Source: an uncultured Phycisphaerales bacterium
GTDB lineage: Bacteria; Planctomycetota; Phycisphaerae; Sedimentisphaerales; Anaerobacaceae
DNA length: 64,000 nucleotides
Direction of reading: 5' to 3'
Assembly: GCA_963718665.1 (NCBI GenBank)
Contig: OY970359.1
Location: 800,001-864,000, forward strand
The notes beneath the pieces are model-generated. The model saw nothing but the letters and a program-made list of their open reading frames with translations. It did not search any database and was not told where the DNA came from. Below are positions 41,697-48,813 of the stretch, piece after piece. Both the position numbers and the translations under genes were made by a program. Within the stretch, counting starts at the first letter, position 1. Each line of letters begins with the position of its first letter.

Positions 41697-42485
41697 TTAA
41701 CCTGCCTGAGGACTTCCATCTTCAGTCGGCGCCGCACCGGTATCCGCCGGTGGACGGCTCGCCTGTCTCGGCCTGCTCGAACCTTCGCCGCCGCCCTCGC
41801 CGCGACCGAACGGCTTGCGCCTCGGCGCCTGTTTGACAACAATCGCCTCGCCAAAAAGACCGCGATGCACCCACACCTTGATACCTATCGTCCCGTATGT
41901 CGTCTCGGCACGGGCCTGAGCATAATCAACATCCGCGTCCAGAGTGTGAAGCGGGATACTTCCCTTCCTCTGCGTCTCACGCCGGGCTATTTCGGCTCCG
42001 CCTAATCGGCCTGAGCACAGAATCTTCACGCCCTTCGCGCCGGCGTTCATCGCCGACTCGCAGAACTGCTTCATCGTGCGCCTGAATGACGCCCGTTTGC
42101 AAAGCTGCTCAGCAACCGCCTCGCCAATCAAAAACGCATTCAGGTCCGGGTCTTTAACTTCAACAACGTTGACTGTAACCTTGCGGCCAGTCAACGCTTC
42201 TATTTCTTCACGCAGCTTGTCAACCTCGCCGCCTCGCGGGCCGATTACCACGCCAGGCCTTGCGCTGTGCAGCGTTACTGTTACCTCATTGCGGGTCCTT
42301 ATGATTTCCGTCTTCGCTACGCCGCCCTTGGGCATCTGCCGGTTGAATTTCTTGTCGATGAACTTGCGAATTTTCTGATCCTCAACAAGAAACGTCCCGT
42401 AGTCCGCTTTCGACGCAAACCACGTGCTGTCCCAGCCCCTAGTTATGCCTGTCCTAAAACCTATTGGCGATACCTTCTGACCCAT
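41697..42485 (-). CDS. rpsC: 30S ribosomal protein S3
   Basis: MGQKVSPIGFR, SGRLGGAEIAR. Confidence 0.97.
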   Translation of the reverse strand: MGQKVSPIGFRTGITRGWDSTWFASKADYGTFLVEDQKIRKFIDKKFNRQMPKGGVAKTEIIRTRNEVTVTLHSARPGVVIGPRGGEVDKLREEIEALTGRKVTVNVVEVKDPDLNAFLIGEAVAEQLCKRASFRRTMKQFCESAMNAGAKGVKILCSGRLGGAEIARRETQRKGSIPLHTLDADVDYAQARAETTYGTIGIKVWVHRGLFGEAIVVKQAPRRKPFGRGEGGGEGSSRPRQASRPPADTGAAPTEDGSPQAG

Positions 42486-42511: not shown

Positions 42512-43060
42512 TTATGGCTGCGAAACCGTAATATATATATGACAACCTTTTTTAGTGAGAGAATGAGCTCTGCCTCTGTCCTTGGCTATCCATCGCTTGG
42601 TGCCGATCCTGACACCCGCGTCATCCACACGCGCCTCACTTATGTAAAGATTATCCACGTCTGCTTCCTGCTCATCCGCGTCGGCTATCGCCGCGCGAAG
42701 CGTCTTGCTTATCATTTCCGCGGCACGCTTCCGCGTGAACTTCAAAATATCCAGCGCGTCCTGCACCTTCCGGCCCGCTATCAACTGCGTAACCAGCCGT
42801 GCCTTGCGCGGTGCAAACGGTGCGTATCGGCAGGTTGAACACCAACCGGCAATATCATTCGGCTCAACTCCCAGCGCCGTCGCCAGACGCTTTACGTCTT
42901 CGCTGCTGGGTATCGGCTTGAATAAACCGTGCTGCCAGTTCTTTACAGCCGATATCGCGTCCTGCTTATCAAGCCCCGCCCTTACAATCTGGCCGCCCAA
43001 TTGCTCCACGCTAATCTTACGCTGCTTACTGATTTTTTTTAATTTTTCCGGGTTCAACAT
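42512..43060 (-). CDS. rplV: 50S ribosomal protein L22 with ~70-aa N-terminal XRE/HTH-like extension
   Basis: C-terminal PRKARLV...GRKVQDAL...RGRA...HI is L22; the ORF starts 14 bp after the rpsS stop and fills the gap. Confidence 0.92.
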   Translation of the reverse strand: MLNPEKLKKISKQRKISVEQLGGQIVRAGLDKQDAISAVKNWQHGLFKPIPSSEDVKRLATALGVEPNDIAGWCSTCRYAPFAPRKARLVTQLIAGRKVQDALDILKFTRKRAAEMISKTLRAAIADADEQEADVDNLYISEARVDDAGVRIGTKRWIAKDRGRAHSLTKKGCHIYITVSQP

Positions 43061-43074
43061 ATCTATTCAAAACC

Positions 43075-43371
43075 TTACTCTCTAGCCGGTGCTGCCGTCT
43101 CTTCTTCTACCTTCCTTGTTGAATGTCCTCTGAATACCCTGGTCGGCGAAAATTCCCCGAGCTTATGACCAACCATATCCTCGGTAACGTAAACTTTGTG
43201 GAACATTTTGCCGTTATGCACCATAAATGTATAACCAATGAATTCCGGAATTATCGTGCACCTTCGTGCCCAGGTCTTTATCGGCTCGCGTAACCCGGTC
43301 TGTATCTGCTTGTTGACCTTCGCAAACAGTTTCACGTCAACATACGGTCCTTTTTTCAGCGATCTTCCCAT
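43075..43371 (-). CDS. rpsS: 30S ribosomal protein S19
   Basis: [22 protein letters not shown]. Confidence 0.97.
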
Positions 43372-45922: not shown

Positions 45923-46237
45923 TTATGCCTTGATTTTTACGAAAACACCGGCAGGCACAACCAGCCGGTTAAGAACTTCAACCGTCCGTGCATTCGCCTC
46001 GCGAATATCAATCAGACGCTTGTGCGTTCGCAACTCAAATTGTTCACGTGATTTCTTGTCGATATGCGGGCTTCTCAGCACGGTGTATCTTTCGATACGT
46101 GTCGGCAGGGGAATGGGGCCGCTGATACGAGCATTGGTCCTTCTGGCGTGTTCCACTATTTCCTTTGCGGATGCATCCAGAATCCTGTGGTCGTATGCTT
46201 CCATCCTTATTTTTATTCTTTCTGTTTCACCGGCCAT
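45923..46237 (-). CDS. rpsJ: 30S ribosomal protein S10
   Basis: [21 protein letters not shown]. Confidence 0.98.
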
Positions 46238-46664
46238 AATACTGTGCCTAAATTCTTAGTATTGTTACAACCTGTTTTTTCACACCTTTGACCGCGACTA
46301 CTACACTTCTGCTGTCACTGCACCGACAAAAACACCCCTGCGGTTTCAGCGCTCTATCATGCCTTCTTGGCAGGAAGGACCTGATTTGGTCATCAAACGC
46401 CCGCGGTCACAGGCATCCGACGCCACAATCGCCTTCCTTAACGAATCGGGGTTCTAATCCTTTTGGACAAAGCTGCCTGGCCCTCAGCCGACAACTCATC
46501 CCAGCTCTTACGGGGTTTATTGGCAACCCCTGCTGTACCCCTTAATTAAACCAATCAACCAATCAAACCGTCCTTGACGACCACGATTCGCAAGACGTGT
46601 TACAGCCCAACTCGTCAATCGCAAAGCCATCCCTGGCGATGCTCGCTACGGCTGAAAGATTAGC

Positions 46665-46693
46665 AATTTAACATACAGCCCGACTTACGTCAA
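46665..46693 (-). promoter_or_regulatory. Putative sigma70 promoter for the S10 operon
   Basis: TTGACG-N17-TAAATT with extended -10 TG and AT-rich upstream sequence. Confidence 0.6.
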
Positions 46694-46734
46694 CCAGCAA
46701 ATTACAAAAATTTTTCAAAGAAATTAATATTTTT

Positions 46735-48813
46735 TTACAGCGATATAACCTGTTCAGCAATCTGTTCGGGCACTTTCTCGTAACTTAAGGGCTCCATCGT
46801 AAACGTGCCTCGACCGGCTGTCGCGCTTCTTATCTCGCTGGAATACCCGAACATCTCGGACAACGGGACTTTAGCGTCAATTGTCCGCGTTTTTCCGTGA
46901 ATCCTGCTGTCTGTGATAAATCCCCTCTTGGAAAGCAAGCTGGCCTGGATAACCCCGAAATGGGCCTCCGGAACAATAACCTCAATCTTCATAACCGGCT
47001 CCAAAAGTATCGGGCCGGCCTTCTCGAGGGCCGCCTTAATCGCAATCGCCGCCGCCTGCTCAAATGCAATATCCGATGAATCCACAGTATGATATGAGCC
47101 GTCAATTAACGTAACTTTAATCCCCATAACGGGATAGCCCGCTAAAGTGCCTGTCCCAAGGGCATCTTCAACCCCCTTCTCGACAGCCCCGACATACTCT
47201 CTGGGCACCCTGTCTCCACCTGCCTCATTGATAAACTCCATCTCCCTGCTCAAGTGTCCGTCTTCGCCAAATAATGGCTCAACCTTCAAAACAACATGCC
47301 CATATTGCCCCCTTCCCCCAGTTTGACGCACAAACTTGCCTTCCGATTCGGCTTGTTTGGTAATCGCCTCTTTATATGCCACACGAGGCCTGCCAACCTT
47401 GATATCTACCCCTTTTTCCTTCATCAGCTTGTGCTGCAGAATCTCAAGATGAAGCTCGCCCATACCGCTGATAATCATTTGGCCGGTTTCGTGGTCAACC
47501 TTCGATTCAAAAGTCGGGTCTTCCCGCCGCAATGCTGCAAGGGCGTCGCCCAGCTTATTTTTATCGCCGGCCGTCTTCGGCTCTATCGACATACTTATTA
47601 CCGTCTGCGGGAAAGTAATGCTGGCAAGCAGCACCGGATGTTTCGGGTCGCTAAGCGTGTCGCCCGTAATTGTATGTTTAGGTCCAACCACAGCCACTAT
47701 GTCACCTGCATGGGCCTCTTCGAGAATTTTGCGGTCGTTGGCGTGCATCTCAAACATTCGCGTGATATTTTCCCGCTTGTCGCGAGTAACATTGAGCACC
47801 CTGCTGCCCGACTTCAATGTCCCCTGGTATATCCTTATGAAATTCAGGTCCCCGTGCGGCTCACTGATAATCTTAAAGGCAAGAGCCACTAAACTGCCTT
47901 TCGGGTCGCACTTGACCGGGATTTTCTTTTCCTCGTCGCCGGGCGCATGGGCGATAATCGGCGGTTTTTCCATCGGCGAAGGTAAATATGCCACAACCCC
48001 GTCCAGCAGCTTCTGAATGCCGATATACTGCAAAGCAGACCCGCAAAACACAGGGTGCAGCTTGCCGGCAATTGTCCCCTTCCTTATCGCCCTGTGAATC
48101 AGCTCCTCCTCAATGGGCTTGTCGTGAACGTATTTATCCATCATTTCTTCATCATGCTCAGCCGCGTGCTCAAGCAGCGTATGCCTGGCCTGCTCCACTT
48201 TGCTGTGGTACTCCGCGGGAATCTCGACCTCCTCGAAATCAGCCCCCAGCTTTTTCGTGTCGAAAATAACCGCGTGCATCTTGATTAAATCTATAACCCC
48301 GGTAAAAGTGTCTGAAGCCCCTATTGGAAGCTGTACAACAAGGGGATTGGCAACAAGTTTTTCTCTGATGCTGTCAATGCTCATTTCAAAATCAGCACCG
48401 ACCTTGTCCATTTTGTTGATAAAGCAAAGGCAGGGCACGCCGTATTTCTGTCCCTGTCTCCAGACCGTCTCGCTCTGCGCCTGCACGCCTTCACTGCCAT
48501 CAAAAACAATCACGGCCCCGTCAAGCACTCTCAACGACCTTTCCACTTCCGCCGTAAAATCAATGTGTCCCGGCGTATCAATAAGGTTGACTTCCGCCCC
48601 GGCCCACGGGAATCTTGTCGCCGCCGACGTAATGGTTATCCCTCTTTTTTGCTCTTCTTCGAGGTAGTCCATCACCGCCGTGCCGTCGTGAACCTCGCCC
48701 ATTTTGTAGGTCTTGCCAGCATAATAAAGAACTCGCTCAGACACCGTCGTTTTGCCTGCGTCAATATGAGCGATAATGCCTATATTGCGTATTTTCTTAA
48801 GCTCTTCTAACAT
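46735..48813 (-). CDS. fusA: Elongation factor G
   Basis: RNIGIIAHIDAGKTT, RGITI, DTPGH, QTGGRGQYGHV. Confidence 0.97.
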   Translation of the reverse strand: MLEELKKIRNIGIIAHIDAGKTTVSERVLYYAGKTYKMGEVHDGTAVMDYLEEEQKRGITITSAATRFPWAGAEVNLIDTPGHIDFTAEVERSLRVLDGAVIVFDGSEGVQAQSETVWRQGQKYGVPCLCFINKMDKVGADFEMSIDSIREKLVANPLVVQLPIGASDTFTGVIDLIKMHAVIFDTKKLGADFEEVEIPAEYHSKVEQARHTLLEHAAEHDEEMMDKYVHDKPIEEELIHRAIRKGTIAGKLHPVFCGSALQYIGIQKLLDGVVAYLPSPMEKPPIIAHAPGDEEKKIPVKCDPKGSLVALAFKIISEPHGDLNFIRIYQGTLKSGSRVLNVTRDKRENITRMFEMHANDRKILEEAHAGDIVAVVGPKHTITGDTLSDPKHPVLLASITFPQTVISMSIEPKTAGDKNKLGDALAALRREDPTFESKVDHETGQMIISGMGELHLEILQHKLMKEKGVDIKVGRPRVAYKEAITKQAESEGKFVRQTGGRGQYGHVVLKVEPLFGEDGHLSREMEFINEAGGDRVPREYVGAVEKGVEDALGTGTLAGYPVMGIKVTLIDGSYHTVDSSDIAFEQAAAIAIKAALEKAGPILLEPVMKIEVIVPEAHFGVIQASLLSKRGFITDSRIHGKTRTIDAKVPLSEMFGYSSEIRSATAGRGTFTMEPLSYEKVPEQIAEQVISL

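Follow-up and report, generated by a model that had tools for sequence, protein, structure and literature searches.

On the 50S subunit, the globular part of the ribosomal protein uL22 occupies the solvent face at the rim of the exit tunnel. Four proteins, uL22 among them, surround the tunnel exit, which is described as a docking platform for biogenesis factors (PMC5071890). [quoted passage not shown]

Bacterial core ribosomal proteins rarely acquire a whole extra folded domain. We analyzed a window of 64,000 nucleotides from an uncultured Phycisphaerales bacterium (contig OY970359.1, positions 800,001 to 864,000), in which, as judged from the sequence and from structure prediction, rplV encodes a uL22 with a folded five-helix domain of the XRE/Cro-C1 type joined without a linker to the first β-strand of the core. 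The features of the locus, in window coordinates, are as follows.

41697..42485, minus strand: rpsC (uS3), the downstream neighbour (ORF list).
42512..43060, minus strand: rplV, encoding uL22 with an N-terminal XRE-like domain, 182 aa (ORF list and translation; stop codon at 42512-42514).
42515..42844, minus strand: canonical uL22 core, residues 73-182, with its first strand (72-80), helices and long β-hairpin (PF00237 match and VIA superposition).
42590..42619, minus strand: tip of the tunnel β-hairpin, residues 148-157, with a 3-residue insertion (alignment).
42845..43060, minus strand: predicted five-helix XRE/Cro-C1-type domain, residues 1-72 (AlphaFold; Foldseek and VIA; hhalign).
42914..42943, minus strand: K-N-W-x-x-G-x-x-K-P patch, residues 40-49, where conservation within the extra domain is highest, covering the end of helix 3 and the loop that follows (alignments A1 and A2).
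43061..43074, minus strand: rpsS-rplV spacer, 14 nt; the rpsS stop TAA and the following GG form an AAGG Shine-Dalgarno-like motif (sequence).
43075..43371, minus strand: rpsS (uS19), the upstream neighbour (ORF list).

The rplV ORF opens with an ATG separated by 14 nt from the stop codon of the upstream rpsS (43075-43077). Its own stop is followed, after 26 nt, by the start of rpsC at 42485. Because these two short gaps flank it, the ORF occupies the rpsS-rpsC interval, as an initial annotation of the locus had stated. The translation agrees with the sequence quoted there, and the strand, which that annotation left out, is minus. The minus-strand gene order is rplC-rplD-rplW-rplB-rpsS-rplV-rpsC-rplP-rpmC-rpsQ-rplN, with rplV at its position in an S10-type operon, and a search of the entire source genome (G000) returns a single rplV match, so that the long form is the sole copy. 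A TAAGG(T) motif precedes the rplV ATG by 9-24 nt in 10 of the 17 loci compared within the order, Sedimentisphaerales. The extension had also been read as fused in frame with no methionine ahead of the core, and this is borne out: the first internal Met of the product is residue 116, within the uL22 core, no in-frame ATG, GTG or TTG occurs between codons 22 and 90 of the window's rplV, and no start codon conserved near the domain boundary was found among the orthologues.

Contigs from four peat metatranscriptome libraries align to parts of the window at 90-99% identity, and one of them, 566 nt long and matching 42753-43317 with 28 differences, reaches from rpsS across the spacer and all of the HTH-coding part into the beginning of the core. 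Such contigs place the sequence of close relatives in RNA libraries and lend weak support, short of proof of transcription or translation, because they can come from DNA. The neighbouring uS3, encoded by rpsC (41697-42485, minus strand), has 262 residues, of which about 40 form a C-terminal tail with abundant Gly, Arg and Pro.

The C-terminal part of the product is an ordinary bacterial uL22. Pfam Ribosomal_L22 (PF00237) matches residues 78-179 with an E-value of 1e-26 and 93.6 bits (cut-off 28), and NCBIfam TIGR01044 (rplV_bact) scores 89.3 bits, above its equivalog cut-off of 73.65. In VIA superpositions on solved bacterial uL22, model residues from about 70 to 182 align with Z of 18-19.4 and rmsd of 1.1-1.5 Å, the best (Z 19.4, rmsd 1.1 Å) over 109 residues, and the N-terminal domain is covered by none of the 50 best solved uL22 chains. 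The excess of about 72 residues over ordinary uL22, first noticed from a length of 182 residues where some 110-120 are usual, is real. The 3-residue insertion at the hairpin tip occurs in the sequences of the order and is missing in families f19, f15, f11, f20 and f14 of the same class; we take the tip to be the region where small deletions in E. coli uL22 alter macrolide sensitivity.

AlphaFold, run on the full-length protein with a 34-sequence alignment, gives a model with pLDDT 90.8 and pTM 0.80, and the extra domain modelled alone reaches pLDDT 89.6. The predicted helices of the domain comprise residues 4-13, 18-26, 32-43, 53-63 and 67-70. A VIA search of 48,161 chains with the isolated domain retrieved 22 chains at Z of at least 8, and almost all of the top 50 are XRE-type, among them C.Csp231I (3lfp; Z 10.1, 70 residues aligned, rmsd 3.2) and C.AhdI (1y7y; Z 9.2, 60 residues aligned, rmsd 1.5 Å). 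Foldseek returned TM scores of 0.65-0.73, with a best E-value of 0.018, which is weak. Since VIA Z values under 8-13 may reflect an arrangement that is common in helical proteins, evidence was sought in the sequence as well.

The profile of the 25-sequence domain alignment (A1) aligns by hhalign to the free-standing protein P0209, itself called XRE from its sequence pattern alone, at a probability of 97.8% with an E-value of 8.3e-13, over 70 columns and with 29% identity. Pfam matches to the window's domain fall below threshold: HTH_19 covers residues 5-70 with E 7.7e-4 and 19.8-20.8 bits (cut-off 30.2), HTH_3 scores 16.7 bits (cut-off 23), and HTH_26 and HTH_31 are sub-threshold too. Orthologous domains reach E-values of 0.01 or better with HTH_31 in 10 of 25 cases (best 1.3e-6) and with HTH_19 likewise in 10 of 25 (best 4.8e-6). 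Based on predicted fold and profile homology, and despite the sub-threshold Pfam scores, we conclude that residues 1-72 form a diverged but true member of the XRE superfamily. The XRE/Cro-like HTH proposed from the sequence pattern has thus held up in the fold check of residues 1-72, in which a lack of HTH matches would have spoken against it.

The connection between helices 2 and 3 exceeds that of the Pfam HTH profile by about 7 residues (only profile positions 2-58 are spanned by residues 5-70), and it carries insertions of 6-7 residues in two genera (loci L025 and L027). Among solved structures the best profile match was to TniQ of type V-K CRISPR-associated transposons (7oxd, 7n6i), whose N-terminal region matched residues 22-72 (42845-42997, minus strand) with a marginal E-value of 1.2e-3 and 22 bits; TniQ is missing from the top fold matches and was dropped as a lead. 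A look-up of residues 1-72 in the ESM Atlas gave no usable match.

Conservation within the domain centers on the patch at residues 40-49. M1, N41 and W42 are invariant in A1, where L7, L21, G29, A35, A38, P49 and A60 are at least 90% conserved, and G45 reaches the same level in the 34-sequence full-length alignment (A2). Of nine pairs for which dN/dS was computed, those that were not saturated gave 0.09-0.18 for residues 2-72 (5 pairs with estimable dS) and 0.014-0.07 for the uL22 core (4 pairs). Among 32 orthologues the domain has net charges between -4 and +8, positive in 29 and negative in three (-4, -2 and -1).

At the junction, the predicted helix 67-70 leads directly into the core strand 72-80, with pLDDT of 90-94 across it. 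Trp73 matches a Trp near the N-terminus of the short uL22 in sister families, for example f11 and f20, and the domain was therefore added with essentially no linker. A split-chain complex prediction of residues 1-72 against 73-182 gave no answer (score 0.00, mark 0.32) and was counted neither way.

In the genomes sampled, the long form is confined to a part of the class Phycisphaerae. Within the order, as defined by record titles, 38 of 41 genomes have an rplV match; 37 of these matches are full length and free of stops, running from residue 1 (or 4-5) to 180-182, the 38th is a fragment at a contig end, and the three genomes that lack a match are 80-87% complete. A class sample of 151 genomes gave 150 matches, full length from residue 1-2 in every genome of the order (20) and in every one of family f19 (7), which belongs to another order; in the other 123 matching genomes the domain was not found, and matches begin at residue 38 or later. 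Of 201 genomes sampled across the phylum, six are detected by the N-terminal profile at E ≤ 1e-5 (the source genome, one other of the order and four of f19), and the other 195 have no match. Both the survey of rplV length in Phycisphaerae and the wider sample therefore agree with the description of the extension as lineage-specific.

Start, frame and length (180-189 aa) are constant across eight families of the order and in f19, whose proteins have 180-181 residues and are labelled Phycisphaerales bacterium. The L22 of the cultured Sedimentisphaera salicampi, 183 aa long, is identical to one sequence of the set. Among the best 80 public loci 79 are full length, under titles naming Sedimentisphaerales, Phycisphaerae or Planctomycetota, or bearing automatic 'Pirellulales' labels; the class named in the initial annotation, Phycisphaerae, is consistent with these titles. 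Relatives thus keep one uninterrupted ORF where two separate ones would have pointed to a sequencing error, and on this comparison the fusion is not such an error. On the same sequences, taken with the dN/dS values, it is old, inherited and under purifying selection.

We also looked for the domain outside rplV. When 1.84 billion representatives were searched exhaustively with HMMER, 144 matches reached E ≤ 1e-3, of which the strong single-stretch ones begin at residue 1. Candidate free-standing copies among the matches of 41-120 aa were rejected where inspected: 15 L22-type sequences of 62-122 aa, among 20 retrieved, end at the domain or core boundary or become unrelated, out-of-frame-looking sequence, and the short database L22 entries inspected are cut at contig ends or run into frameshifted sequence. 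Multi-stretch matches were likewise discounted as copies, being tandem arrays of ordinary HTH_3 domains in 15 of 20 proteins scanned. Four metagenomic proteins that surfaced as summed weak matches to the domain profile (P0122, P0150, P0163 and P0177; 700-1900 aa) contain 8-12 tandem XRE-type HTH_3 domains, P0122 with HEAT repeats in addition. A genome with the domain contains just a single place that the N-terminal profile matches at E ≤ 1e-5.

Families that lack the domain show no relic of it between uS19 and uL22 in 20 loci. The distance from the uS19 stop to the start of the uL22 match is 7-89 nt in 17 of these loci, and in the other three the match extends back over the uS19 stop into the uS19 coding sequence; the few matches that begin before residue 65, whose stop-riddled upstream similarity might be taken for a relic (for example residues 38-181 in G069), overlap the uS19 coding sequence and were rejected. 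In a 23S rRNA tree of 14 genomes, whose root depends on one distant outgroup (E. coli), f19, with the domain, is sister to G047 of f15, without it (support 1.000), and f19 and f15 stand apart from the order. The uL22-core tree also places f19 with f15 (support 0.968). This grouping in both trees, and the lack of the hairpin insertion in f19, argue that the f19 gene was not simply imported whole from the order. The history of the domain would thus need at least two events: either it was gained once, anciently, and then lost several times, or it was transferred on its own.

What might such a domain do on uL22? An old inherited fusion under purifying selection and with no conserved internal start implies that every 50S subunit should carry the domain, and since the globular part of uL22 is on the solvent face and the junction has no linker, the domain would have to sit there, the uL22 N-terminus being placed on the 50S subunit from general knowledge. 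The large subunit of this lineage would then probably bear an extra knob beside the tunnel exit. The reading that we favor, at somewhat less than an even chance, is that the domain is a permanent surface module of the 50S subunit, packed on rRNA or on the ribosome surface. It would reside permanently on the solvent face near the tunnel exit and contact rRNA or a partner there; the conserved helix-3/loop face (K40-N41-W42, G45 and K48-P49) may pack on 23S rRNA or the adjoining ribosome surface, and the domain would serve subunit architecture or assembly rather than transcription. The placement of the EDF1/Mbf1 HTH between rRNA helices is a precedent for such packing.

Some observations temper the packing on rRNA. 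The negative net charge in three of 32 orthologues counts against it, being unusual for an obligate RNA binder, and the conserved N-W-x-x-G...P is also a general structural signature of XRE domains, as in P0209, and may therefore reflect the fold and not an interface. No matching change in 23S rRNA was found either, which counts against the packing too: in an alignment of 14 genomes and E. coli, 16 blocks differ in length by at least 5 nt, and in none of them do the 8 genomes that have the domain part from the 6 that lack it. As a separate observation, the 23S rRNA of G031 (L113) has about 300 extra nt at E. coli positions of about 1861-1873, and a stretch of 30 nt in E. coli, at positions of about 1711-1741, corresponds to 96 nt in that of the source genome (L114). 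These are lineage-specific expansions or intervening sequences, unrelated to the presence of the uL22 domain.

The lack of a co-varying rRNA change fits as well with a second reading, to which we give a minor though serious share of belief, namely that the ribosome-borne domain docks a protein partner at the tunnel exit, such as a factor for nascent-chain processing, targeting or folding, or a hibernation factor. XRE-like folds serve roles other than DNA binding, the top structural matches include HEPD, MPnS, HppE and the SinR-SinI complex, and a net charge that varies so widely among orthologues suits a protein interface better than an RNA interface. Against docking, no candidate partner was found. 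Trigger factor (TIGR00115) and bL32 (PF01783) occur in all 18 genomes compared, irrespective of the domain, and therefore provide no phyletic partner signal; by the same count, the loss of a neighboring component alongside the domain was rejected for both.

By analogy with Mbf1/EDF1, the domain might instead be a built-in Cro/C1 HTH that does more than scaffold: a covalent bacterial counterpart of that factor which, at the tunnel exit, recruits a factor specific to the lineage or senses a state of the translating ribosome, or which lets uL22 act in addition as a nucleic-acid-binding regulator. We consider this doubtful, with a modest probability at most.

A further reading, which we hold to be improbable, is that free, non-ribosomal uL22 binds DNA or its own mRNA through the HTH and so controls the ribosomal protein operon autogenously, a possibility that the initial annotation had raised beside a contact with the nascent chain or rRNA. 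Autogenous control by ribosomal proteins is well established, and the domain is homologous to XRE-family transcription regulators and positively charged in most orthologues, with the invariant N41 and a mostly basic residue 40 on helix 3, the recognition helix of XRE proteins; both residues presumably map to DNA-contacting positions. The known autoregulators among ribosomal proteins, however, bind mRNA through their rRNA-binding surface and not through added HTH domains. The lengthened helix 2-helix 3 connection, tolerant of insertions, is a poor fit to the tight turn required in the major groove, the missing linker does not give the domain reach to DNA, and the net charge is not constant in sign.

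The region in which an operator or leader element might be expected offers little to this reading either.

46238-46734, minus strand: fusA-rpsJ gap, 497 nt, between fusA (46735-48813) and rpsJ (45923-46237).

The gap lacks the tuf gene that many bacteria have at this place, encodes only small ORFs of up to 85 aa, and contains a promoter-like site with an extended -10 at 46693-46665; the S10-type operon may have its long leader here. Between 40000 and 50000, Rfam has no match at E ≤ 1. Upstream of rpsJ there is no operator-like palindrome, the only inverted repeats being A/T-rich ones at the fusA stop, and the predicted fold is weakly better than that of shuffled sequences (z -1.65), which is not a strong fold. 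As judged from these sequence features, a role of the domain as a transcription factor appears less likely.

Finally, it is very improbable that the extension is neutral, as a passenger or a functionless captured ORF, or that it arose artificially from a mis-called start or an error of assembly: although the Pfam HTH scores lie under the gathering thresholds and some database entries are truncated or frameshifted, start, frame and length are shared across the order and f19, residues 2-72 have low dN/dS, the AlphaFold models are confident, no relic lies upstream of uL22 in families without the domain, and the short entries inspected end at contig ends or run out of frame.

The addition is a lineage-specific extension of a core ribosomal protein, here, by sequence and model, a whole XRE-type domain. 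If the domain sits on the 50S subunit as we infer, it alters the surroundings in which nascent chains encounter factors for processing, folding and targeting, in a widespread group of anaerobic sediment and peat Planctomycetota, and bacteria would have a parallel to the Cro/C1 HTH with which Mbf1/EDF1 binds the ribosome. Should a regulatory or recruiting role prove true, this would be the first XRE-type regulatory module shown to be integral to a bacterial ribosome. The patchy spread, over a whole order and one family of another, poses the question of ancient gain with losses versus domain transfer. Full-text literature searches, made mainly outside the subscription journals, returned no paper describing an HTH on uL22. 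Long L22 proteins are already in public databases as plain 'L22', some with precomputed Pfam matches to both HTH_19 and L22.

How does this protein compare with known systems? Like other bacterial uL22, it passes the thresholds of PF00237 and TIGR01044, is encoded between rpsS and rpsC and superposes closely on solved structures; unlike them, it has 72 extra N-terminal residues as a separate globular domain, together with the 3-residue insertion at the hairpin tip. The extra domain shares its predicted five-helix fold with XRE/Cro-C1 (lambda-repressor-like) domains such as those of the controller proteins C.Csp231I and C.AhdI, of P22 c2 and of DdrO, and differs from them in its fusion to a ribosomal protein, its sub-cut-off Pfam scores and its longer, variable helix 2-helix 3 connection. 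The N-terminal XRE-like domains of HEPD, MPnS and HppE are also similar (Z 9.3, TM 0.64-0.68), although these are parts of cupin-type enzymes with no ribosomal context; they show that the XRE fold occurs as an enzyme domain too, beyond free-standing regulators.

Enlarged uL22 proteins have been described before. The NCBIfam model NF008917, 'L22/unknown domain fusion protein' (311 positions), likewise represents a lineage-specific addition to uL22, whereas the window's protein matches only its positions 13-109, the L22 part, with 46.1 bits against a cut-off of 526. Chloroplast uL22c has N- and C-terminal extensions and is almost twice the size of its E. coli counterpart, but these extensions are mostly unmodelled, and no HTH is reported for them in that account (PMC5071890).

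A further parallel is Mbf1/EDF1 of archaea and eukaryotes, in which, as in our proposal for uL22, a cro/C1-type HTH resides on a ribosome. Mbf1/EDF1 is a separate factor that is recruited to collided ribosomes and binds the small subunit, whereas the domain described here is a covalent part of a large-subunit protein (PMC7486125). The architectures also differ: the HTH of Mbf1/EDF1 follows an N-terminal MBF1 domain in eukaryotes or a zinc ribbon in archaea, whereas the window's protein, in which Pfam detects L22 and HTH families only and neither an MBF1 nor a zinc-ribbon domain, carries its HTH N-terminal to uL22.
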